DNA of 64,000 nt from Escherichia phage L27 (LC473039.1); one strand, 5' to 3'. Positions 7,573 through 54,340 are shown, counted from the first letter of the stretch. Notes: generated by a model not told the origin, from the letters alone. Numbers and translations are program-made.

Positions 7573-7757
7573 TCAAGGTCAACAAGCCTTTGCAGGACTT
7601 TCCCTCTAGGTGTTACACCTTTTAAATCTGCATCATAGCAACGGTAAAAGTCACCTTCAGCGTGTTTACCATAGCATTTTCTGATATTCTGGCTTCTACG
7701 GTATTGTTCTAATAGAGACAGTCTGTAGTAATCTTCAACTGTAGTTAGTTTTTTCAT
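7539..7757 (-). CDS. hypothetical protein (72 aa)
   Basis: ORF. Confidence 0.45.
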   Translation of the reverse strand: MKKLTTVEDYYRLSLLEQYRRSQNIRKCYGKHAEGDFYRCYDADLKGVTPRGKVLQRLVDLEWNKRLRGVGK

Positions 7758-7840
7758 TCTTTCACCATGTCTCTTATCTATAAACTAAAAAGGGAACTAC
7801 CTCTCGATAGCTCCCATCATAATCAGTGTTGTATACTTGG

Positions 7841-13063: not shown

Positions 13064-14479
13064 ATGAGCGAGTTATTTAAACATGCGCACCTTCATGCAG
13101 GTCGAACTGAAAATGGTGCTGTAAACCATACTTCATCAATGTCTGCTCTGGTAGACTTCTACAAAGCCGCTGGCTCAAGCCGTAGCAATGTAGAAATCTT
13201 ACCAGACCTGTTCTACAAAGCTTTGCGTGAGGATGTTGATGTTGCAGTTCGTATTTTACTGCATATGCGAGATGTACGAGAAGGTATGGGTGAGCGTAAA
13301 GCTTTCCGAACTGTTTTACTTCAAGCGATTGAAGATAAGGTTTTAGAACCTACACAGGTTCTTCGCATTATGGATAAGATTGCAGAACTTGGTCGTTTTG
13401 ATGACTTCAAAATCTTCGTAGGTACTCGTTTCGAGACAGATGCCTTCAAACATTTAGAAGCAGCATTACTAGACCCTGCAACAGCAGGTTTAGCAGCTAA
13501 GTGGTTGCCACGAGTAAAACCACGCCACAAACAGTTTGTAAAACGTTTCTGTAAGTTTGCAAACTTAAGCGAGAAGGAGTATCGCACACTGCTATCTGCA
13601 CTGTCTGATACGGTTGAGCAAAAAATCTCTGCTAATGAGTTTGGTAAGATTGACTACAGCAAGATTCCTTCACTCGCTGCTGCACGTTACCAAAAGCTCT
13701 TTAACCGTAAAGATGGAGAGCGTTACAAAGCTTACATCGAATCATTATCAAAGGGTGAGGTTAAGATTAATGCTGGTGCTGTTTACCCATATGATGTGAT
13801 TAAATCTATTAAGTATGGTAATGCAGATGTTGCTAATGAGCAGTGGAAAGCACTTCCAAACTGGATGGCAGAAGGTGAAAACATCTTGTGTATGACTGAT
13901 GTTTCAAGCTCAATGTCTTGGGTGAATCTTGGTTCAATCACTGCCCTTGATATTGGTGTATCACTTGCCTTGTATGTAGCAGAACGCAATACAGGTTGCT
14001 TTAAAGATGAGTTAATGGTCTATTCAACAAACCCTCATTTCATTGAACTGAGTGGTGATTTACGAAACCGTCATCGTCAGGTAATGCGTCATGTTGAATA
14101 TGGTTCAACTAACTTACAAGCAGCTTTTGACCGTATTCTTGAGGTAGGTAAGAGAAACAACTTGACTCAGAAAGATATGCCAAGTAAGCTTATTATCTTC
14201 TCTGATATGGAGTTTAATCAGGTTGATGGTGCAAATGGTCGTACAAACTTTGAAGCAATTCAGAGTAAGTACAAAAAAGCTGGATACGAAATGCCACAAC
14301 TAGTATTCTGGTACTTAGCAAACCGTAATGGTACTTGCGAAGTATCTGTTAAGGATAATGGTGTAGCAATGGTATCAGGGTTCTCTCCAGCCACTTTAAA
14401 AGCTCTGCTTGGTGGTGAGAAGTTTGACCCAATCAGTGTAATGCTCAAAGCGGTAATGATTGACCGTTATATCTGGTAA
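13064..14479 (+). CDS. vWA-domain protein with MIDAS-like motif; candidate Ro60/TROVE-like (or DUF2828-like) RNA-binding protein (471 aa)
   Basis: DxSxS motif (DVSSSMS) about residue 280 followed by vWA-like pattern (IIFSDMEFN, VSGFSP); overall architecture resembles Ro60/Rsr as recalled, not searched. Confidence 0.5.
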   Translation: MSELFKHAHLHAGRTENGAVNHTSSMSALVDFYKAAGSSRSNVEILPDLFYKALREDVDVAVRILLHMRDVREGMGERKAFRTVLLQAIEDKVLEPTQVLRIMDKIAELGRFDDFKIFVGTRFETDAFKHLEAALLDPATAGLAAKWLPRVKPRHKQFVKRFCKFANLSEKEYRTLLSALSDTVEQKISANEFGKIDYSKIPSLAAARYQKLFNRKDGERYKAYIESLSKGEVKINAGAVYPYDVIKSIKYGNADVANEQWKALPNWMAEGENILCMTDVSSSMSWVNLGSITALDIGVSLALYVAERNTGCFKDELMVYSTNPHFIELSGDLRNRHRQVMRHVEYGSTNLQAAFDRILEVGKRNNLTQKDMPSKLIIFSDMEFNQVDGANGRTNFEAIQSKYKKAGYEMPQLVFWYLANRNGTCEVSVKDNGVAMVSGFSPATLKALLGGEKFDPISVMLKAVMIDRYIW

Positions 14480-14497: not shown

Positions 14498-14526
14498 TTG
14501 ACAATGTGTTTGATACCCTTTAATAT
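14498..14526 (+). promoter_or_regulatory. strong sigma70-like promoter (TTGACA-17-TAATAT) upstream of tRNA cluster
   Basis: consensus -35, 17-nt spacer, near-consensus -10. Confidence 0.7.
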
Positions 14527-14644: not shown

Positions 14645-14721
14645 CTCTGTTTAGCTCAGCTTGGTAGAGCGTTCCGTTTGGGGCGGTAAGGCCGGAGGTT
14701 CAAGTCCTCCAACAGAGACCA
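14645..14721 (+). tRNA. tRNA-Pro (anticodon TGG)
   Basis: hand-folded cloverleaf; 7-bp acceptor ctctgtt/aacagag, T-loop ttcaagt, CCA encoded. Confidence 0.7.
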
Positions 14722-14728
14722 AATTAAT

Positions 14729-14806
14729 GTTCCAGTAGACAAAATGGTATAGTCACCACTCTTTCAAAGTGGATATTTGAGGGTTCAAATCCCTTCTGGA
14801 ACGCCA
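14729..14806 (+). tRNA. tRNA-Glu (anticodon TTC)
   Basis: acceptor gttccag/ctggaac, anticodon loop ctttcaa, CCA encoded. Confidence 0.7.
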
Positions 14807-14810
14807 GTTT

Positions 14811-14889
14811 TGACAGAAGACCAATTACAGCAAACTTAATCTTATTCATCTGAAGGTAAATCGGACAAAGAAGAGACTTGGTCTGGTCA
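14811..14889 (+). ncRNA. structured RNA-like element A (Y-RNA-like family)
   Basis: terminal helix tgac/gtca + AGAA/UG internal loop + GACCAA/TTGGTC helix; conserved 'tacagcaa' box. Confidence 0.5.
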
Positions 14890-14898
14890 TTAAGAATT

Positions 14899-14975
14899 GC
14901 GGGTATAGAGAAAGGGCGTCTCACATGTCTCATTAGCATGGTATCGGCAGGTTCGACTCCTGCACCCGCCTCCAA
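14899..14975 (+). tRNA. tRNA-Met-like (anticodon CAT), 1:72 unpaired
   Basis: anticodon loop ctcatta, T-arm gcagg/ttcgact/cctgc, CCA encoded; first acceptor pair mismatched. Confidence 0.6.
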
Positions 14976-14978
14976 ATT

Positions 14979-15049
14979 TACAGAAGACCGTTTACAGCAA
15001 AATTGAATGAAATTTTTAGCGGAAAAATTGAAAGATACGGTCTGGTAAT
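14979..15049 (+). ncRNA. structured RNA-like element B (Y-RNA-like family)
   Basis: terminal helix ttac/gtaa + AGAA/UG loop + GACCGT/ACGGTC helix. Confidence 0.5.
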
Positions 15050-15058
15050 ACTAAACAT

Positions 15059-15132
15059 GGTTAGGAAGCACATAAGGTATGTGCGGTCGCCTGTTAAGCG
15101 AATGGCACAGGGTTCGAATCCCTGACTAACCG
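15059..15132 (+). tRNA. tRNA-Asn (anticodon GTT)
   Basis: T-arm caggg/ttcgaat/ccctg, anticodon loop ctgttaa; CCA not encoded. Confidence 0.65.
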
Positions 15133-15144
15133 CAAAATTTAAAT

Positions 15145-15232
15145 GTGTCGTTATCCCGTAGATGGTAGCGGTGGGGACTGTAAATCCCTTGTCATTGAGA
15201 CTCGGTAGGTTCGACTCCTACACGGCACACCA
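15145..15232 (+). tRNA. tRNA-Tyr (anticodon GTA), long variable arm
   Basis: anticodon stem-loop gggga/ctgtaaa/tccct, T-arm gtagg/ttcgact/cctac, acceptor gtgtcgt/acggcac. Confidence 0.65.
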
Positions 15233-15254
15233 ACACTTAGCGAGATACTTAGTT

Positions 15255-15683
15255 ATGAGAGATGAAGTATACAAATCACAACTTGGTATGAGTTTGGGAA
15301 CTGCACAAAACAGACTAGTAAAAGATTTGCTATTCGATTTTATATGTAAGACAAATCAAAATAGATGTTTTCAGTGCGGAAAAGAAATGACTAGGGATGA
15401 TTTCTCTATCGAGCATAAGATTCCGTGGAGACATAGTGAGAATGCAAAAGAGCTTTTCTTTTCACTAGATAATATTTCTTATAGTCATCTTAAATGTAAC
15501 ATGAAAGCAGCAAGACCAGCACAGATAAGTGAAAGAAAACATAAAACAATTAAACACGGAACTGCGTATAGTTATTTTAAAGGCTGTAGATGCGATGAGT
15601 GTAGGTTGGCTAAGAATGCTGAGAGTAGAAGAAACTATAGTCCAGAAAGACGTAGGAAGAAGTATCTAAGAAATGGCACATGA
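15255..15683 (+). CDS. HNH homing endonuclease (142 aa)
   Basis: CFQCG...SIEHKIPW...N...H..CN HNH motif; basic C-terminus; embedded in tRNA cluster. Confidence 0.75.
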   Translation: MRDEVYKSQLGMSLGTAQNRLVKDLLFDFICKTNQNRCFQCGKEMTRDDFSIEHKIPWRHSENAKELFFSLDNISYSHLKCNMKAARPAQISERKHKTIKHGTAYSYFKGCRCDECRLAKNAESRRNYSPERRRKKYLRNGT

Positions 15684-15687
15684 ATTT

Positions 15688-15763
15688 GGGGTATTAGTTT
15701 AGACGGGTAAAATACGGGATTGTCTCTCCTGAGCCGCGAGTTCGATTCTCGCATACCTCGCCA
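15688..15763 (+). tRNA. tRNA-Asp (anticodon GTC)
   Basis: acceptor ggggtat/atacctc, anticodon loop ttgtctc, CCA encoded. Confidence 0.75.
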
Positions 15764-15821
15764 ATTTTGAGAGGGCTATTTAGCCCCTCCCTTAAAGGGT
15801 TCTTACGAGTATCTTTTAAAG

Positions 15822-15903
15822 GAGCAGAAGACCAAATACAGCAAGAACGTATGAAAATTTCAAGCCAATTTAATTTTGAAAAATTTAAAACTTGGTCTGG
15901 CTC
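15822..15903 (+). ncRNA. structured RNA-like element C (Y-RNA-like family)
   Basis: terminal helix gagc/gctc + AGAA/UG loop + GACCAA/TTGGTC helix. Confidence 0.5.
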
Positions 15904-15910
15904 AACAAAT

Positions 15911-16047
15911 TTACAGAAGACCGTTTACAGCAAAACTTAAACAATCTATTTCTCGGTAAAGAAAAGGCGAAGGTTCGATTCCTTCACTCGGCAGATGTCG
16001 AGTTGGTGTAATGGTAGCACTTAAGATGATAAACAACGGTCTGGTAA
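15911..16047 (+). ncRNA. structured RNA-like element D with circularly permuted tRNA-like module (candidate YrlA-type Y RNA)
   Basis: same terminal helices as A-C; interior has T-arm gaagg/ttcgatt/ccttc, then acceptor-3' actcggc, 4-nt linker, acceptor-5' gtcgagt (7-bp complement) and D-arm gtgt/aatggta/gcac. Confidence 0.5.
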
Positions 16048-16189
16048 TTATCTTTGTAGATAAGTTATTAAGCTTACCTGTGAGTATGCGACCACAAAGG
16101 GTGAAAGGGTAAATTCTAGATTTAAACCCAACAAGGCACATCGCTACAGACCTTAAGCAAGTCTGGGTAGCTTATCTACAAAGATAATT
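16046..16189 (+). ncRNA. structured element F bounded by a 19-bp perfect inverted repeat
   Basis: aattatctttgtagataag (16046-16064) is the exact reverse complement of 16171-16189; about 106-nt interior with internal hairpins. Confidence 0.45.
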
Positions 16190-16193
16190 TAAT

Positions 16194-16269
16194 GGAAGTG
16201 TAGCAGAATGGTGATGCGGTAGACTTTTAATCTGACAGGCGATGGGTTCGAATCCCTCCACTTCTACCA
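16194..16269 (+). tRNA. tRNA-Lys (anticodon TTT), atypical T-stem
   Basis: acceptor ggaagtg/cacttct, anticodon loop cttttaa; T-stem has A.C and U.U mismatches. Confidence 0.55.
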
Positions 16270-16273
16270 AAAT

Positions 16274-16350
16274 GGTTCAGTCGCAGATAAGGTAATGCAA
16301 GGGTCTCATAAGCCCTATGAATGTGGGTTCGATTCCCATCTGAACCTCCA
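16274..16350 (+). tRNA. tRNA-Met or Ile2 (anticodon CAT)
   Basis: acceptor ggttcag/ctgaacc perfect, anticodon loop ctcataa, CCA encoded. Confidence 0.7.
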
Positions 16351-16367
16351 ATTTATAGGTGATACTT

Positions 16368-16853
16368 ATGATTTGTGCCAACAAAGATTGCAGAAATGAA
16401 GCCGTTAAAGGTGGAAAATTTTGCTCACGCTCTTGTTCTGCAAAAGTGAACAACAAGAAACACCCAAAGAGAAGTCAGGAAGGCTCTTGCCATTCATGCG
16501 GAAAGGTAACGCCAAAAGCGAGAAAATACTGTGACGAATGTATTGCAGGTGGAGTCATGAAAAAACATAAGACCCATCATGAAAAAAGCAAAGCCAAATC
16601 ACTGCACGTTAAAAAGTCTCGTGACAGACTGAAGAAGGCTTTAGTTGATTACAAGGGTGGTTGTTGTTCAATTTGTGGTTACAATAGGTGCATAAAGGCT
16701 CTAGAGTTTCACCACTTAGACCCTAAGACAAAAGACTTCACAGTAAGTAAAAAACACTACTCACTGGCTACAATGCAGTCTGAAGTTGATAAGTGTGTCT
16801 TGCTTTGTGCAAATTGCCACAGAGAAGTACACGAAGGGGTAACAATGCTGTGA
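16368..16853 (+). CDS. HNH homing endonuclease (161 aa), Cys-rich N-terminus
   Basis: CSICGYN...LEFHHLDP...CANCHREVH HNH motif; stop codon lies inside the first bases of tRNA-Ile. Confidence 0.75.
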   Translation: MICANKDCRNEAVKGGKFCSRSCSAKVNNKKHPKRSQEGSCHSCGKVTPKARKYCDECIAGGVMKKHKTHHEKSKAKSLHVKKSRDRLKKALVDYKGGCCSICGYNRCIKALEFHHLDPKTKDFTVSKKHYSLATMQSEVDKCVLLCANCHREVHEGVTML

Positions 16854-16922
16854 AAGCACATATGGATGTGCATTCGGCTGATAACCGAAAGGCAGAAGGT
16901 TCAAATCCTTCTCACAGTACCA
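16847..16922 (+). tRNA. tRNA-Ile (anticodon GAT)
   Basis: clean cloverleaf: D-stem gcac/gtgc, anticodon stem ttcgg/ccgaa, T-stem gaagg/ccttc, CCA encoded. Confidence 0.8.
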
Positions 16923-16937
16923 ATTTCAATAAAGTTG

Positions 16938-16966
16938 TTGACATTGAGATGTGACTACTTTATAGT
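16938..16966 (+). promoter_or_regulatory. sigma70-like promoter (TTGACA-17-TATAGT) inside tRNA cluster
   Basis: consensus -35 and good -10 with 17-nt spacer. Confidence 0.65.
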
Positions 16967-17170
16967 AACCTTAGTTTTCGTTGCGTAGCGTCTATTTTGC
17001 AAATTTAAAATAAATGCAAACGACAATGTTTTTCTGGCAGTAGCTTGATAGGCTAAACACCAGTGAGGTCTTCCAATCCCTCATCAAAGAATTTGGCGTA
17101 CTCGCCCACGGTATGATTAATAAGGTGGGCATCTTTAAGGGCTTTCTAAGAGAGTCTTTAAAGATAATTA

Positions 17171-17252
17171 CGGGGCGTATCTCAGCGGTCTTCTAAACCG
17201 CCGTTAACCGAGTAAGTGGAGTATGCGGGTTCGAGTCCTGCCGCCTCGACCA
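17171..17252 (+). tRNA. aberrant tRNA-like gene (possible anticodon TCT), D-arm missing or unrecognisable
   Basis: good T-arm and 7-bp acceptor (cggggcg/cgcctcg) with CCA; stem-loop gcggt/cttctaa/accgc; only about 7 nt where the D-arm should be. Confidence 0.4.
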
Positions 17253-17395
17253 ATTTAGTTAGCAGATTACTTAGACGACCTAAGCGGGTCTTCCTGTAGG
17301 GAGGTGGTCTGTATCTCATGTTTTCCAGAACATGTAAATAATCTGAGAAGGGGCTTTACAGTGTTGAGATAATACGGTAAGCTTCGAATTATAGT

Positions 17396-17478
17396 ATGGG
17401 ACGATGTTAAGACTCTAAGGCATGAGCAACGGCTTCCAACACCGTTTCAAAGGGGTTCAACTCCTCCGTCCCATGCCA
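17396..17478 (+). tRNA. tRNA-Trp-like (anticodon CCA) with about 8-nt insertion before D-stem
   Basis: perfect 7-bp acceptor atgggac/gtcccat, anticodon loop ttccaac, T-loop ttcaact, CCA encoded; expanded D region. Confidence 0.45.
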
Positions 17479-17491
17479 AAGTCTTATTAGG

Positions 17492-17581
17492 GGTAGGTAG
17501 CGGCTAATGGTAGCCAAACAGTCTTGAAAACTGTTGCCACTGTAGAGATACGGTGAGGGTTCGACTCCTTTACTTACCGCC
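17492..17581 (+). tRNA. tRNA-Ser (anticodon TGA), long variable arm
   Basis: anticodon stem acagt/actgt perfect, loop cttgaaa, 20-nt variable arm. Confidence 0.75.
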
Positions 17582-17735
17582 TAATAAGATTTTACACCGT
17601 CCATGCTTGCTCGCATTTTCGGTTTATCCCTCGTGTATTGTCGTACACTGATAAAGCACCTAGTAGGTGTCACGGAGAAGAGATAATATCAAGCTCTCCA
17701 AAGGTTCTAGTCACCGGATTAAACAAGACTATGCA

Positions 17736-17758
17736 AAGACCAAATTAGGTCTTTTTAG
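17736..17758 (+). terminator. terminator-like hairpin with T-run inside tRNA cluster
   Basis: aagacc-aaatta-ggtctt followed by TTTTT. Confidence 0.45.
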
Positions 17759-17835
17759 AGGGCTTCTAAGGTTATTACAGCTTGTTGTGGAACCTTGTTG
17801 CTTAGGTTCTTAGAAGTTCTCTAAAAAGATTTAAT

Positions 17836-17913
17836 GGGAGATTGACGGTAATTGGTAAACCTATCTCGCTTAGAACGAGATGTTTGAGGGTTCGAATCCC
17901 TTGTCTCCTACCA
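17836..17913 (+). tRNA. tRNA with Leu-type anticodon TAG but short variable arm
   Basis: anticodon stem tctcg/cgaga, loop cttagaa, T-arm gaggg/ttcgaat/ccctt, CCA encoded. Confidence 0.55.
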
Positions 17914-17920
17914 AATTAAT

Positions 17921-17996
17921 GCAGGTGTAGCAAAATGGTTATGCGGCTGACTCTTAATCAGTAAGACGATGGGTTCAATTCCCTCCACCTGTACCA
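17921..17996 (+). tRNA. tRNA-Lys (anticodon CTT), atypical T-stem
   Basis: anticodon stem gctga/tcagt, loop ctcttaa; same unusual T-stem as the TTT Lys tRNA. Confidence 0.55.
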
Positions 17997-18002
17997 GACA
18001 TT

Positions 18003-18078
18003 GGGGATGTAGTTTACATGGTTAAAACATAAGTTTTGCAAACTTAAGTACAGGGTTCAATTCCCTGCTTCTCCACCA
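18003..18078 (+). tRNA. tRNA-Ala (anticodon TGC)
   Basis: G3.U70 wobble pair present; D-stem gttt/aaac, anticodon stem taagt/actta perfect. Confidence 0.8.
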
Positions 18079-18084
18079 ATTAGT

Positions 18085-18159
18085 GCATCCATAGTTTAAA
18101 CGGGAAAATTGCAGTCTTCCAAACTGAGGTTGAGGGTTCGATTCCCTCTGGATGCTCCA
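18085..18159 (+). tRNA. tRNA-Gly (anticodon TCC)
   Basis: perfect acceptor gcatcca/tggatgc, T-arm gaggg/ttcgatt/ccctc. Confidence 0.75.
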
Positions 18160-18165
18160 AATAAA

Positions 18166-18242
18166 GCTGCTTTCGTATAATTGGCTATTACACATCCCTT
18201 GTAAGGATGGAAATGCAGGTTCGAGTCCTGTGAGCAGCACCA
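18166..18242 (+). tRNA. tRNA-Thr (anticodon TGT)
   Basis: anticodon stem catcc/ggatg perfect, loop cttgtaa, CCA encoded. Confidence 0.75.
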
Positions 18243-18245
18243 ATT

Positions 18246-18333
18246 CAGAGGTCAAGTGAAAGACCGCTGGTGTCAACTGAAGACCGTAACAAATTCCACG
18301 GAGTTGAGTTAGCGGCACAACTTCAGACCTCTT
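18246..18333 (+). ncRNA. structured RNA-like element E (truncated family member with nested helices)
   Basis: outer helix agaggtc/gacctct; inner mini-element 18275-18307 has caac/gttg + ccgt/acgg helices and 'gaagaccgt' box. Confidence 0.4.
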
Positions 18334-18337
18334 TCAC

Positions 18338-18412
18338 ACTCGCTTAGTTTATATGGTAAAACATCACCCTTACAAGATGAAGAAAAAGGTTCAAGTCCTT
18401 TAGTGAGTACCA
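18338..18412 (+). tRNA. tRNA-Val (anticodon TAC)
   Basis: D-stem gttt/aaac, anticodon loop cttacaa, T-arm aaagg/ttcaagt/ccttt. Confidence 0.7.
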
Positions 18413-18413
18413 T

Positions 18414-18491
18414 GTTCCAGTATCCCAATTGGCAGAGGATGCAAGCTCAAACCTTGTATTAGTGACGGTTCGAATCCGTCTTGGAACACCA
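18414..18491 (+). tRNA. tRNA with Leu-type anticodon CAA but short variable arm
   Basis: anticodon stem gcaag/cttgt, loop ctcaaac, T-arm gacgg/ttcgaat/ccgtc perfect. Confidence 0.55.
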
Positions 18492-18510
18492 ATTTTAAGA
18501 GGCTATTTAG

Positions 18511-19068
18511 ATGAGATATTTGAAGTATGCTTCATGGATTTTCCTAGCTTTACTAGAGCCATTTGCAGCAACCCTAGCAGTCATCTTAGCACCTTTCGTA
18601 GTCCCATTCTACAGTGAGAAGAAAGGGCATCTACCTTTTGGATTCAGATGGATGGAGACCTATGACAACCCGATTGATGGTGATGAAGGCCACGTTAAAA
18701 GATGGGCTAAGATTAGAAAGATTGGTAAGCTGGGTGTCTACATGCAGAGAGTTGGGTGGCTCTGGAGAAACAAAGCTTATAACTTCTCTTACCATGTATT
18801 AGGAAGAGATGTAAAAGATGTTACTAAGTGGAAAGGTAATATCAACGTAAGTTCTAACCCTGAAGATAATCAAACAGGTTATCTCCTAATGTGGAACAGA
18901 AATGCTTGGGGTTTATTTGCTTTTATCCCATCAATTAAAGTCTTTGGTAAACAGTTTTACTGGAGAATTTATATTGGATGGAAACTAAAAAGTGTTGTCC
19001 CAGAAGAAAGAGCATTCTCAAGGGAAAGAGTTATGTTGGCATTCTTTATTCATCCACTGAGAAAGTAA
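18511..19068 (+). CDS. hypothetical membrane protein (185 aa) inside tRNA cluster
   Basis: N-terminal hydrophobic segment (WIFLALLEPFAATLAVILAPFVVPF); ORF between tRNA genes. Confidence 0.55.
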   Translation: MRYLKYASWIFLALLEPFAATLAVILAPFVVPFYSEKKGHLPFGFRWMETYDNPIDGDEGHVKRWAKIRKIGKLGVYMQRVGWLWRNKAYNFSYHVLGRDVKDVTKWKGNINVSSNPEDNQTGYLLMWNRNAWGLFAFIPSIKVFGKQFYWRIYIGWKLKSVVPEERAFSRERVMLAFFIHPLRK

Positions 19069-19076
19069 AGATTTAA

Positions 19077-19152
19077 AGGGGATTAGTTTACAAGGTTAAA
19101 ACCTCGGTCTTTGAAATCGAAGAAGTTGGTTCAATTCCAACATCCCCCGCCA
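19077..19152 (+). tRNA. tRNA-Gln (anticodon TTG), A1.C72 mismatch
   Basis: anticodon loop ctttgaa, T-arm gttgg/ttcaatt/ccaac perfect. Confidence 0.65.
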
Positions 19153-19154
19153 AT

Positions 19155-19233
19155 GCTCCATTACTCCAATTGGCAGAGAGGCCAGACTTAAAATCTGTGT
19201 TATGTATCGGTTCGAATCCGATATGGAGTACCA
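19155..19233 (+). tRNA. tRNA with Leu-type anticodon TAA but short variable arm
   Basis: anticodon loop cttaaaa, T-arm atcgg/ttcgaat/ccgat perfect. Confidence 0.55.
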
Positions 19234-19238
19234 AATTT

Positions 19239-19314
19239 AGCGGTATAGCATAACTGGCAATGCAGCAGTCTCTGAAGCTGTCCTATTAAGGTTCAAATCC
19301 TTATGCCGCTGCCA
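19239..19314 (+). tRNA. tRNA-Gln (anticodon CTG)
   Basis: anticodon stem gcagt/gctgt (two G.U), loop ctctgaa, T-arm taagg/ttcaaat/cctta. Confidence 0.7.
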
Positions 19315-19345
19315 CTTCTAAGGGTTCTTACGAGAGTCCTTAAAT

Positions 19346-19421
19346 GTGGCCTTATCATAAATGGTAATGACCCATGCTGTGAACATGGTCTATACGGGTT
19401 CAAATCCCGTAGGTCACCCCA
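19346..19421 (+). tRNA. tRNA-His (anticodon GTG)
   Basis: D-stem tcat/atga, anticodon stem ccatg/catgg perfect, T-arm acggg/ttcaaat/cccgt perfect. Confidence 0.8.
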
Positions 19422-19426
19422 ATTTA

Positions 19427-19502
19427 TAGTCCAAGTAGCTTATATGGTAAAGCGCGTGTCTGAAAAACATGAGAAGAGGGTTCAAATCCCACTGGACTAC
19501 CA
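19427..19502 (+). tRNA. tRNA-Phe (anticodon GAA), boundaries approximate
   Basis: D-stem gctt/aagc, anticodon loop ctgaaaa; acceptor tagtcca/tggacta. Confidence 0.6.
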
Positions 19503-19518
19503 ATTTCAAAGGTGCTTA

Positions 19519-20253
19519 ATGAAAGAGATGACAGAACAAGGTAAGGAGATTTTTAATCTCTTAAAAACCGGTAAAGGGTTTTCTAACCCACTTATTACTG
19601 GTGCAGCAGTTCTCGGTGGAACCGTAGCTGCCTCTACATCACTTGTAAACTCTATTAGTTCTGTAACAGACCCTACAATGAAGGATAAACTTGTTGCTGC
19701 TGGACTTACAACAGTCCTTCTAAACAGCTTTACAACAAGCCTTACAAGCACTACAGCAACTACTAAGACCCTAACAGACTACGGTCAAAAGTCTATTGAT
19801 GAGTTTTCATCACGTATGCAGGTAGCAAAGGGATACTCCAATGTTATGGGTGCAGCAGGAGAACAAGTTGGTTGTACACCATTCAGTGGTATTATGGGTG
19901 TTGCTACAGAGTATGGTCAAAAAGCTATTGACACGATTAACAGTACACTGGATAGTGTTAATGATGTGTTAAGTGACTTACAAGATGCTATTGATAAGGG
20001 TCTTGATACTGTTTCTGATTTAGCTAACCAAGCTGTAAGTAAAATTAATGAAGGTATTTCAAAGATTACAGCTTATGCAGATGAAGTTGTGCAGATGATT
20101 GAAGAAGAAGCTGCACTTATTGCAGAGTACCTTAAAACGAATATCAATGGGTTCTTAGCAGGTATCTTACCAGACTGGTTTGATGATGCTTGCAAAACTG
20201 GTGTAATTGACACTATTGCAACACCAGAAATGAAGAACGCATTACAGAAATAA
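19519..20253 (+). CDS. hypothetical Ser/Thr-rich protein (about 245 aa) inside tRNA cluster
   Basis: ORF from ATG at 19519; the upstream part of the track ORF overlaps tRNA genes and is discounted. Confidence 0.5.
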   Translation: MKEMTEQGKEIFNLLKTGKGFSNPLITGAAVLGGTVAASTSLVNSISSVTDPTMKDKLVAAGLTTVLLNSFTTSLTSTTATTKTLTDYGQKSIDEFSSRMQVAKGYSNVMGAAGEQVGCTPFSGIMGVATEYGQKAIDTINSTLDSVNDVLSDLQDAIDKGLDTVSDLANQAVSKINEGISKITAYADEVVQMIEEEAALIAEYLKTNINGFLAGILPDWFDDACKTGVIDTIATPEMKNALQK

Positions 20254-20254
20254 T

Positions 20255-20347
20255 GGAAGATTAACCCTAAAAGGTAAGGGAGCAGTTTGCTAAACTGCCA
20301 GTAGCTGAGAAATCGGTGTACCAGTTCAAGTCTGGTATCTTCCTCCA
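20255..20347 (+). tRNA. tRNA-Ser (anticodon GCT), long variable arm
   Basis: perfect acceptor ggaagat/atcttcc, anticodon stem gcagt/actgc, 21-nt variable arm. Confidence 0.8.
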
Positions 20348-20351
20348 ATTT

Positions 20352-20427
20352 GAATCCGTGACAGAAATGGCTATGTGCCTGTCTGCAAAACAGGTTTATA
20401 AGGGTTCGAGTCCCTTCGGATTCTCCA
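20352..20427 (+). tRNA. tRNA-Cys (anticodon GCA)
   Basis: perfect acceptor gaatccg/cggattc, anticodon stem cctgt/acagg. Confidence 0.8.
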
Positions 20428-20590: not shown

Positions 20591-20614
20591 GACGGTCTCT
20601 GTACCGTCTTTTTT
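20591..20614 (+). terminator. rho-independent terminator
   Basis: gacggt-ctctgt-accgtc followed by TTTTTT. Confidence 0.7.
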
Positions 20615-51929: not shown

Positions 51930-52197
51930 CATCTGGTCAATACACTCGCAAGGTGTACCAGTTCTCTTATGAACTTCTCCGCATTTCTACGGAGTGTCGG
52001 ACTATATCACGTAGTAGTAATACTACCGTTGCACTTGGGAATGGTCATTAGCTTACCACCCTACTCTACTCAGTTCATACATTAAGTACGCTTTTCGATA
52101 GTCTCTGAACGTTCCTCTTAAGAGGCTTCGCTGCTGATTACCATATCTTTACAGACTTAGGCTTCCAGCAATTCACAACGTTTTACATGCGCCACTG
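51930..52197 (-). mobile_element. group I intron (268 nt, ORF-less) in DNA polymerase gene
   Basis: conserved P (tgctggaagc), Q (aatcagcag), R (gttcagagactatc), S (gatatagtcc) elements in correct order; P1 with U.G at 5' splice site; terminal G before exon 2. Confidence 0.8.
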
Positions 52198-54340
52198 ACG
52201 CATAGATACCATTCTTAGCCTTCTTACGACCTTTTGTAATCTCGTGAAGAAGTTCCTCATCCTGTGTCTCCCTACAACGAACAATATCTTCTTCCTTGTT
52301 CAGACCAAAGTAAATACTGTTCAGTGTATGTGCATCAGTCCCTGTGTAGACTTCATAGAGGTCGTTCTCAGCATCATAACGAAGATACTTGTCAGTTTCT
52401 GGATTAAGATACTTATCGAGATGCTTGCAATAGTATCTGCCATCCTCTTGCTTAGTGAACTCTACTGACTCTTTACCCTCAGTTACTGCTTTGGTGAAGT
52501 CTTCATCACCCATAAAGTTACAAAGAAGAACAAGCTGTGCAGAGTTCTGGTCAACTGAAACGATGTTAGTCCCCTCCTCACAAATCCACACCTCCCTCAT
52601 AGGTGCTCCATAGACAGCAGCACCAGACGGTACGTTTACAATACCATACTGTGTCATACGTCCAGTTGAAGTACCGAACACCATCGCACCAGCACTAAGG
52701 CGACCATCAGGACGAATCTGGTTCAACCAACCTTTTTCATCATCCTTTGAGTTCTCAATAGTTCTGCGTCGGTGCATCAAAGTGTAGTACTTAGCAATCT
52801 TCTGTCCAAGCTCACCTTCAATCGTATCATAAGATGATTCAGTAAGTTTTGGTGAAGTACGGATTAAGCAAGGCTCAAGCAAATCTGTGTACTTCTTCAC
52901 AGACCAGTTATGCTCAATGTACTGTACACCTTCATGTTCAACATAACTCAAACCACACCGCTCAACCATTTCCTGCCACTTAGGATGCTTTGTAATCATC
53001 TTTTTATTGTCTTTGAAACGACAAACTTTGACAGGGCGACCATCTGAGTCTTTCTTGTAGTTCCAGTCATCTGGAATCCAACCAACTGATTTCAAGTAGT
53101 CTTTAACAACTGCTACCTGAGTCATACGAGAAACTTCGAACTCAATTGGTGTATATGGTGCATCAATCAAACCTGTGTAGCGACTTGACTCAAGTTCAAA
53201 GTGGTTAACAACGTGACTGTTATAGTACTTCACAGTTTTGACTGTTTTTACTGGTTTCCAGTCTTTGCATTTCTTACCAATCTTTGCGTTCAACTCATTG
53301 CAAATTGCACGAGCATCCTTCATTGCTACAAAACCCTCCTTGTACTCTTCACCAGTTACAGAGTTGGTTGGCGTATAGCAATTTCTCTTTTCAATGTTAA
53401 AAATCTTTGTAGTTGGCTTACCAAATGGCTTGATTTCGTATGTCTGCATCTCACCGTTACGCACCTGCTGACGATACTTTGTCTTAGGATACTTGGTAAT
53501 TCTCTTCAGTCCATCTACATGACCAAATGTTTCAACATACTCATTCCAAGCTTTTGCAAACTCTTCTCCAGTAACTTTACCTTTGGTCTTAATAGTTGGA
53601 GGTAGATGTGGTTCAACCTCTGAAGCAAGCTCATTAGTCAACTTGTCAAGTTCCTTCACATGGAACTCCATAAGCTCCTTATCAGCTTTCCAACCATTAA
53701 TAGCTTGTTGACTCATCCAGAAAGATGTTTCTTTAGCTCGCATGTAGGTTTCATAAGTGTCTATGCCACACTTCTTAAGCTTGAGATACTCATTATCAAG
53801 TGCCCGTTTAGTTTTGGCGTTAATACGGATATCTTCTACAACACGAGTGAAGATTTCTGCATTCCACACACCCCAATACTCAATCTCTGGCTTACGAACA
53901 CCAACACGAGCACCCCATGCAGCCAAACCATGAGCACCTTTATAACCTTTTGGAGTTGGTCTATCCATCCACTGAACACGAGACTGGATAAGAGAATCCT
54001 GAAAGAAATTACTCCACGGTTTACACTTTGGATTATCAAAGTTCCATAAATCCGGTGCAATGTGATTGAAAACCCACCAGTCATAACCGAGACCGTTATG
54101 GATGCAAAGACGTTTTGCCTTTAACGCAAACTCAACACCTTCACGCAAACCCCCCTTAATGTACTTGGTATACTTGTGACCGAGGATAGGCTCATCTGTA
54201 AAGACCCATACAGGTGGCTCTTCATCGTCAGATTTATAGTCTGCGAAAGCCATTACGTGCACTTTAGTGAACTCAAGGAGTAAACCATCAGTTTCTGTAT
54301 CACCAACCAAATGTAAGTTTTTAAAATCTACGTTTTCCAT
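52198..54340 (-). CDS. DNA polymerase (family A, T7-like), exon 1
   Basis: 3'-5' exo motif 'DTETDGL', T7 gene 5-like segments, motif B start 'KKAKNGIYA'; track ORF continues 13 codons into the intron to an in-frame stop. Confidence 0.8.

Follow-up and report, generated by a model that had tools for sequence, protein, structure and literature searches.

What fills the 95-nt gap between tRNA-Thr and tRNA-Val in the tRNA cluster of a Felix O1-like phage? Phages of this type are widely used in typing and therapy, and the 64-kb stretch of DNA that we analysed (Escherichia phage L27, LC473039.1; hereafter the window) is that of a Felixounavirus, a Felix O1-like myovirus of the Ounavirinae. Its 24 tRNA genes lie on the plus strand (14645-20427; ARAGORN) and are mostly 1-8 nt from their neighbours, which makes the gap an outlier. 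The original prediction took it to hold a fifth, truncated member of a family of structured elements, A-D, found in the same cluster, and saw in this the sign that the family helix is the functional unit. Here we ask whether the gap sequence, element E, belongs to that family or stands by itself. Our analysis favours the latter: E is probably a separate conserved structured RNA within the polycistronic tRNA transcript, and not a truncated copy of an A-D element.

Element E lies within the transcription unit of a tRNA cluster

The 401-nt stretch around E is 99.5% identical to Escherichia and Salmonella Felixounavirus records. E is present in one copy per genome and carries no annotation in any record inspected, with spurious ORFs overlapping it in some. 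The encoded CCA end of tRNA-Thr lies 4 nt before the first helix of E, and the E hairpin ends 5 nt before tRNA-Val (Table 1). Neither a sigma-70 promoter (-35/-10) nor an intrinsic terminator (GC-rich hairpin plus U tract) was found in 18243-18337; the surrounding transcription unit has predicted promoters at 14498, 14589 and 16938 and a terminator at 20591.

Table 1. Coordinates of element E, its predicted structural parts and neighbouring features in the window
Feature	Position	Strand	Sequence	Remarks
Ro60-like ORF	13064-14479	+		DUF2828 + DUF7788; just upstream of the tRNA cluster
Element A	14811-14893	+		Candidate Y-type RNA
Element B	14978-15052	+		Candidate Y-type RNA
Element C	15822-15904	+		Candidate Y-type RNA
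Element D	15911-16045	+		Candidate Y-type RNA
tRNA-Thr (UGU)	18166-18242	+		Upstream of E; ARAGORN; Rfam tRNA model, 54.7 bits
Element E	18243-18337	+		Full structured spacer RNA, 95 nt; whole tRNA-Thr/tRNA-Val gap
P1, 5' strand	18247-18257	+	AGAGGUCAAGU	Partners 18320-18323 and 18326-18332
P2, 5' strand	18264-18268	+	CCGCU	Pairs with 18311-18315; conserved part of first box
27-nt core	18272-18298	+	GUCAACUGAAGACCGUAACAAAUUCCA	Identical in Ounavirinae and Av-05/TH18 copies
P3, 5' strand	18273-18278	+	UCAACU	Contains caac; pairs with 18302-18307
Bulge, 5' side	18279-18283	+	GAAGA	Unpaired; core of second box; MFE fold and RNAalifold consensus
P4, 5' strand	18284-18287	+	CCGU	Pairs with 18298-18301
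Apical 10-nt loop	18288-18297	+	AACAAAUUCC	Identical in window and Av-05/TH18
P4, 3' strand	18298-18301	+	ACGG	Fold, alignment pairing
P3, 3' strand	18302-18307	+	AGUUGA	Fold, RNAalifold, alignment pairing
P2, 3' strand	18311-18315	+	AGCGG	Fold, RNAalifold, alignment pairing
P1, 3' strand	18320-18332	+	ACUU-CA-GACCUCU	2-nt CA bulge; fold and RNAalifold
tRNA-Val (UAC)	18338-18412	+		Downstream of E; ARAGORN; Rfam tRNA model, 60 bits
DUF7338 gene	18511-19068	+		Pfam DUF7338, E-value 3e-61

Element E is predicted to form one hairpin with an invariant bulge

RNAfold folds E into a single irregular hairpin of ~87 nt with four helices, P1 to P4 (-30.7 kcal/mol, z = -2.96), and 1 of 200 shuffled sequences folded equally well. 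RNAalifold recovered the same four helices independently from the alignment of E. Over the 23 distinct sequences aligned, 96.4% of cells were paired, against 27-44% in slid controls, and the covariation score was 0.059, compared with 0.039 in shuffles, a value that none of the 500 shuffles reached. Folded alone, the copy from phage Av-05 preferred a partly different interior (z = -1.41).

Compensatory double changes arose twice independently, as G-C to U-A in P1 in the Av-05 lineage and as G-C to A-U in P2 (CCAC/GUGG) in the metagenome locus L191. Wobble-compatible changes add to these: A to G at 18254 and A to G at 18320 in P1 of other phages, U-A to U-G at the top pair of P3 in four distinct sequences, and G-C to G-U in P4 in the Av-05 lineage. 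Double changes in P3 and P4 were never seen among the 23 distinct sequences and most pairs of E are invariant; support for these two helices comes from conservation together with the wobble-compatible changes. All one-sided changes give G-U wobbles on the plus strand and A-C mismatches on the other, and since they pair on the plus strand only, they argue for a plus-strand RNA and not a DNA cruciform. The most conserved parts of E are unpaired, namely the GAAGA bulge, invariant in 23/23 distinct sequences, and the apical loop, in which two singleton changes fall at the same position.

All the sequence features described in the original prediction are there. The caac/gttg helix (18274-18277 with 18303-18306), the ccgt/acgg helix, the 10-nt loop capping them and the outer 7-bp helix agaggtc/gacctct (18247-18253 with 18326-18332) were all found, as were both copies of the proposed family box, tgaaagaccgctgg at 18257-18270 and ctgaagaccgtaac at 18277-18290. 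The mini-element formed by the two inner helices exists too, but at 18274-18306, one base away from the 18275-18307 first given. The AGACC part of the first box varies, reading GAAAUCCGC in Av-05, GAAAAACCGC in L220 and GAAAGGCCGC in L041, so that it is not a conserved box, the only part kept being the CCGC of the P2 5' strand.

Element E is conserved in two phage subfamilies

E is at least 94% identical in ~260 records of Felixounavirus and Mooglevirus (Ounavirinae). It is also present, at 81-83% identity (82.8% for Av-05), in the Vequintavirinae phages Av-05 and TH18, whose complete genomes (120.9 kb and 133.9 kb) we searched. There it comes after tRNA-Gly, and its start lies 4 nt past a tRNA CCA end in both phage groups. 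A covariance model of E scored 75-121 bits at 25 phage or metagenome loci, and its variants of 95 and 96 nt are a 1-nt indel apart. When viral contigs and metagenomes were scanned for exact patterns, every copy obtained was Ounavirinae-like or Av-05-like, the other matches being chance ones in coding sequence.

The only other nearby sequences shared with the Vequintavirinae are tRNA-Gly, 86% identical between the window and Av-05, and the DUF7338 gene, whose protein has 78% amino-acid identity to the product of the Av-05 ORF just downstream of E. Between the window and Av-05, this gene is 48% identical at third codon positions and 27% identical at fourfold-degenerate sites, which is saturated. 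As neutral sites are saturated and an unconstrained spacer would be unalignable, E is under purifying selection comparable to that on a tRNA. Such tRNA-like conservation across two phage subfamilies makes it almost certain that E is functional.

The gene order in Av-05 and TH18 bears on what this function could be, because an ORF pair ending in DUF7338, and not a tRNA, comes after E in these phages. Once tRNA-Gly is excised, E would form the 5' end of the DUF7338 mRNA. This lends weight to a serious rival to our reading, if an unlikely one, in which E works purely in cis, as part of the transcript, and has no role once freed from it: RNase III or RNase E could cut there to separate tRNA sub-clusters, or E could be an ancestral 5'-terminal stabilising or regulatory hairpin for the DUF7338 mRNA. 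Either role would suit a long imperfect duplex of ~26 bp with an AU-rich single strand on its 5' side, and E and DUF7338 move jointly between phage subfamilies. However, the concentration of conservation in the unpaired bulge and loop is unexpected if E were a 5' stabiliser or a nuclease site defined by structure alone, E and DUF7338 are two tRNAs apart in the Ounavirinae, and DUF7338 homologues occur in T4-like tRNA regions that lack E.

DUF7338 itself appears, from its distribution, to be a mobile 'tRNA-region' gene. It has a predicted N-terminal membrane helix. Besides the window copy, genes of this family were located at L003 3347-3889, L171 2501-3067 and L172 2501-3055. The T4-like phages KP15 and MX01 carry homologues of 57-60% identity in their tRNA regions, and no E-like element was found beside these. 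A DUF7338 gene 99.5% identical to that of the window is also present in GenBank MG065664.1, 'Campylobacter phage A132' (70.7 kb), a record that is probably mislabelled or contaminated.

Elements A-D are candidate Y-type RNAs of a Ro60-like protein

Whether E belongs with A-D depends on what these elements are. They share the layout NNNC-AGAA-GACCNN(N)-UACAGCAA ... NN(N)GGUC-UG-GNNN, and the pattern AGAAGACCNNNTACAGCAA matches exactly at 14815, 14982, 15826 and 15915. Their lower 4-bp helix covaries among members (TGAC/GTCA, TTAC/GTAA, GAGC/GCTC), and the variable upper-helix pairs covary too. Scanning viral contigs gave 46 distinct full members, all on Ounavirinae-like contigs, in which the UACAGCAA box directly 3' of the upper helix is invariant. 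The interiors, of 45-110 nt, vary freely. That of D is tRNA-like, with the order V, T arm, closed acceptor-like hairpin, D arm, and the acceptor-like hairpin of the D type covaries between phages; bacterial Y RNAs of the YrlA type share this interior architecture (PMC4201824).

The ORF just upstream of the cluster (Table 1) is homologous to 'Ro-like RNA binding proteins' of mycobacteriophages, and its AlphaFold model (pLDDT 89) matches Ro60 structures over its full length (TM 0.6-0.67). A preprint on the Felixounavirus Bas63 described a Ro60-like fold for a homologue, reported that the Ro60-like Bas63 gp130 counters the ppl defence system, and speculated that some 'tRNAs' are Y RNAs (PMC11482910), the only statement on Y RNAs of Felixounavirus that our literature search gave. 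A related arrangement is found in Klebsiella phage FBKp34 (Stephanstirmvirinae; L159, MW394390.1, 6001-8130), where a DUF2828 gene with 52% identity to that of the window is followed by a promoter, several elements made of a stem and UACAGCAA, and a tRNA cluster; one of these elements gives a YrlA match at 7707-7814 (39.6 bits, E-value 3e-7). The order gene, RNA, tRNA is conserved in different phage subfamilies, and UACAGCAA is the only motif common to the A-D family and the Ro60-linked RNAs of FBKp34. On the strength of these sequences and of the modelled fold, A-D are best read as Y-type RNAs of the neighbouring Ro60-like protein.

Phage FBKp34 also has a Y-type motif inside a tRNA: a 114-nt 'tRNA-Asp' (L159 8003-8116; 47.7 bits as a tRNA) has a 51-nt insert between its D and anticodon arms, consisting of a hairpin and GAAGUUUUACAGCA. 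We also observed sub-threshold matches to the Dictyostelium Class I RNA (RF01414), in the window at A (14819-14885, 19.8 bits) and D (15919-16043, 13 bits) and in FBKp34 at L159 7532-7594, 7621-7671 and 7689-7726 (25.2, 23.6 and 15.5 bits). Class I RNAs and the phage elements have in common a terminal stem of 5-6 bp starting with G, (U)UACAGCAA, a variable interior, and a 3' strand ending in C and followed by UG. DUF2828 is present in eukaryotes, and we know of no core protein partner of the Ro60-like kind for Class I RNAs; these may be Y-like RNAs of DUF2828-type Ro60-like proteins.

Element E resembles the A-D helix but falls outside the family

We built a family covariance model, R1, on 25 distinct sequences of the A, B and C types; its structure consists of the two helices. 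In the window it scored A, B and C at 77-79 bits and the held-out D at 27.6 bits (E-value 2e-4), and E went unreported at E-value <= 10 in a 7-kb search with filters off. When E was searched alone (111 nt), it obtained 2.4 bits (E-value 0.81). In the other direction, the model of E found none of A-D and nothing but E in the window. A helix-only model with interiors removed, R3, did not recover A-D of the window and is uninformative on E either way. Such a covariance-model comparison was the check that the original prediction had set for itself, and its outcome for E contradicts a fifth family member.

The differences between E and the family are specific. E has no UACAGCAA box, the site 3' of the upper helix being occupied by AACAAAUU, and it lacks the 3' GGUCUG strand of the family, a single A standing in place of the 3' UC-UG. 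Its upper helix is reduced from the family GACCNN/NNGGUC to the pairs CCGU/ACGG, with GA left unpaired, so that with this single A the bulge reads GAAGA rather than GAA; it corresponds to the GAA bulge plus the first two upper-helix bases of A-D. E further has a 10-nt loop instead of a long interior, a nearly invariant sequence where the family interiors vary freely, and a module that sits internally on top of P1 and P2 instead of at the ends of the RNA.

The likeness is nevertheless real. E and A-D each combine an NNNC/GNNN helix, a GAA-containing purine bulge, a GAAGACCGU 5' strand and a CCGU/ACGG helix, on the same strand of the same tRNA cluster. The 5' box of E, C-UGAAGACC, is identical to the family C-AGAAGACC at 8/9 positions, and its apical 5' strand CUGAAGACCGU is identical to B and D at 10/11. 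The window has four copies of GAAGACCGT, where 0.25 would be expected; B, D and E account for three of them, with identical sequence. CAAC/GUUG has the register of the family helix, although in E it is internal and never covaries among E sequences. A search of both strands of the 64 kb for a composite layout (4-bp helix, 1 nt, GAAGACC plus 2 nt, complement of CCNN, 0-8 nt, helix complement) returned five sites, exactly A, B, C, D and E, against 0.13 in random windows, an optimistic figure in that the pattern was designed after seeing E. The apical module of E thus resembles the family helix beyond chance, and the apical hairpin is a structural relative of that helix, by descent or by convergence.

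Phages Av-05 and TH18 show how far E can be separated from its neighbours in the window. No DUF2828 homologue was detected in either genome by tblastn (best E-values 4.9 and 3.5) or by a profile search of all six-frame ORFs at E-value <= 10, and their tRNA clusters contain no UACAGCAA or A-D-type elements. With both the Ro60-like gene and the A-D RNAs missing from these phages, E is maintained independently of the two. 

This bears directly on a distinctly unlikely explanation, in which E would belong to the A-D family as a minimal Y-type RNA, stripped down to the protein-binding helix and bound by the product of the Ro60-like ORF. The confinement of the composite layout to A-E and the 10/11 match of the 5' strand to B and D speak for it, as does the ORF modelling as a Ro60 fold. 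The Ro60-like gene is on the same strand as E, 3.8 kb upstream, and Chen et al. 2014, whose predicted Y RNAs lay no further than ~4 kb from the Ro60 gene, pointed out that Ro60 touches mainly the 5' strand of its site (PMC4201824). Against this, the family model scores E at chance and the model of E misses A-D, E lacks both the 3' GGUCUG strand and UACAGCAA, the sole motif shared with the FBKp34 RNAs, its module stands atop ~20 further bp and does not form the ends of the RNA, and the core is invariant in the two phages that have no Ro60-like gene.

We therefore retain the similarity in helix module from the original prediction and depart from it on membership and truncation. E is not degraded, evolves as slowly as a tRNA and persists where A-D and the Ro60-like gene are missing, so it lends no support to the idea that the helix is the functional unit of the family. 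Sequence and predicted fold point instead to a distinct conserved structured RNA outside the A-D family.

Other identities of element E

No Rfam family matched E, either at the gathering threshold or at E-value <= 10, in searches of the 64 kb, a 6.2-kb segment and a 105-nt segment. A tRNA or tRNA pseudogene was ruled out, with no cloverleaf found by ARAGORN or the Rfam tRNA model. The Y RNA and YrlA models (RF00019, RF02553) gave no match at E-value <= 10, and of the YrlA tRNA-like domain (V, T, AS and D arms) E has no T or D arm. E has in common with bacterial and phage Y RNAs (YrlA, RF02553; YrlB) that it is a small structured RNA with paired 5' and 3' ends, close in the window to a Ro60-like gene, and its purine-rich CUGAAG is reminiscent of the proposed Ro60 site GNCGAAN0-1G (PMC4201824). 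It differs from them in having no tRNA-like domain, in carrying the motif in the middle of the hairpin and not near the 5' end, and in occurring in phages without any Ro60 homologue. Class I RNA (RF01414), defined by a 6-bp terminal stem, CCUUACAGCAA and a 3' CUG(U), gave no match for E.

Ribozymes were considered as well. CUGAAGA fits the CUGANGA box of the hammerhead and is directly followed by a short hairpin at the position of stem II, but AGU comes after this stem instead of GAA, no NUH site or stem III is correctly arranged, and Rfam gave no match. HDV-like 'theta' ribozymes are located immediately 3' of phage tRNAs, as E is; the nested pseudoknot is impossible in E, whose 5' end pairs with its very 3' end, and again there was no Rfam match.

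A small ORF starting with GUG at 18256 (18 codons) is excluded as a conserved frame by the 1-nt indel among variants. A host homologue or long antisense target was rejected, a search of 5,426 E. coli genomes returning one 24-nt chance match. Among bacterial contigs, the eight 19-mer matches were due to chance, and the model of E scored at most 19 bits against 75-121 bits for real copies. A pairing partner for GAAGACC inside the tRNA cluster was rejected as well: GGUCUUC sites exist but have no counterpart in Av-05.

Finally, it is highly improbable that E has no RNA function and is either a DNA-level element, such as a cruciform or the target or scar of a homing endonuclease, or a copy of a tRNA or repeat that has decayed: HNH endonuclease genes do lie between tRNAs of the cluster (15162-15683 in the window), an endonuclease gene separates tRNA-Gly from tRNA-Thr in Felix O1 and SP22, and the minus strand of E folds about as well as the plus strand (-31.3 kcal/mol), but E stayed 83% conserved while neutral sites became saturated, its compensatory changes and its G-U changes keep pairing, the latter on the plus strand alone, none of 263 records has an endonuclease insertion that splits E, and both tRNA searches were blank on it.

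Possible maturation and function of element E

Returning to E as a separate conserved RNA of the tRNA transcript, its position between two tRNAs suggests that tRNA processing probably excises it. It would be set free as a small RNA of ~90 nt by the enzymes that mature its two tRNA neighbours: the RNase P cut at 18337/18338, the 5' end of tRNA-Val, would create its 3' end, and on the tRNA-Thr side RNase E would cut before 3' trimming. These steps are modelled on established E. coli tRNA processing. The paired ends would then make the released RNA stable.

In kind, the nearest analogues of E would be the small stable RNAs of T4, species 1 and species 2 (rnaC and rnaD), which are likewise small RNAs encoded inside a phage tRNA cluster. 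They are stable, co-transcribed with tRNAs and matured from a tRNA precursor and, to our knowledge, went without an assigned function for decades. The analogy does not extend to homology of sequence or structure; rnaC has a tRNA-like 3' domain that E lacks, and in the T4 tRNA region the model of E did not rise above noise (7.9 bits at most). If matured in this way, E would add to the small group of non-tRNA RNAs that derive from phage tRNA precursors.

The active part of E would be the nearly invariant apical 27 nt, comprising P3, the GAAGA bulge, P4 and the 10-nt loop. As nothing in E varies less than the unpaired bulge and loop, this region can be seen as a protein recognition site, and we regard a sequence-specific protein-binding module as its most likely nature. 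The Ro60-like protein is a possible, putative partner in the Ounavirinae; as E is kept in phages without such a protein, it cannot be the only one. Binding of E to this protein would bear on what a Y-type RNA requires, the bulged helix or the UACAGCAA box.

More doubtful still than a minimal Y RNA is a further view of E as a new class of phage small RNA, in which a free-standing minimal form of the bulged-helix module with which the Y-type RNAs would bind their Ro60-like protein, released from the tRNA precursor, serves in trans as ligand or decoy for an RNA-binding factor. This factor would be the Ro60-like protein where there is one and a host factor in Av-05-like phages, and such an RNA could take part in quality control of tRNA or RNA, or in counter-defence.

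Additional features of the tRNA cluster and the window

The heptamer GAAGACC occurs 20 times on both strands of the window against 6 expected. Its exact complement GGUCUUC, complementary to the box of A-E, is found on the plus strand between tRNA-Ile and tRNA-Ser at 17067-17073, 17187-17193 and 17287-17293. One of these copies falls within the D-loop region of a tRNA-like sequence that has a CCA end (17171-17249, plus strand; Rfam 31.7 bits), which ARAGORN misses and whose syntenic gene is annotated as tRNA-Arg in Citrobacter phage Mordin. Weak tmRNA-like matches lie just upstream of it (16933-17169). Close by, GAUUACUUAGACGACC...GGUCUGUAUC at 17268-17320 (plus strand) resembles the A-D helix through its lower helix GAU(U)AC/GUAUC and its 3' GGUCUG; AGACGACC stands where the family has AGAAGACC, UACAGCAA is missing, and the family model did not detect the element.

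Two ORFs lie between tRNA genes on the plus strand, at 15162-15683 and 16359-16853, the first with a weak HNH match (E-value 3.5e-4), and another such ORF is at L001 375-788. The site of the putative endonuclease gene of Felix O1 and SP22 is a 6-nt spacer in the window. Further long hairpins are found in tRNA spacers at 16039-16187 and 17741-17840 (both on the plus strand); one is an inverted repeat of ~18 bp, ATTATCTTTGTAGATAAG / CTTATCTACAAAGATAAT, around ~110 nt, the other spans ~90 nt before tRNA-Leu, and Rfam yields only spurious microRNA matches for both. Outside the cluster, the minus strand carries a group I intron at 51977-52209 (Rfam RF00028, 64.9 bits, above the gathering score).
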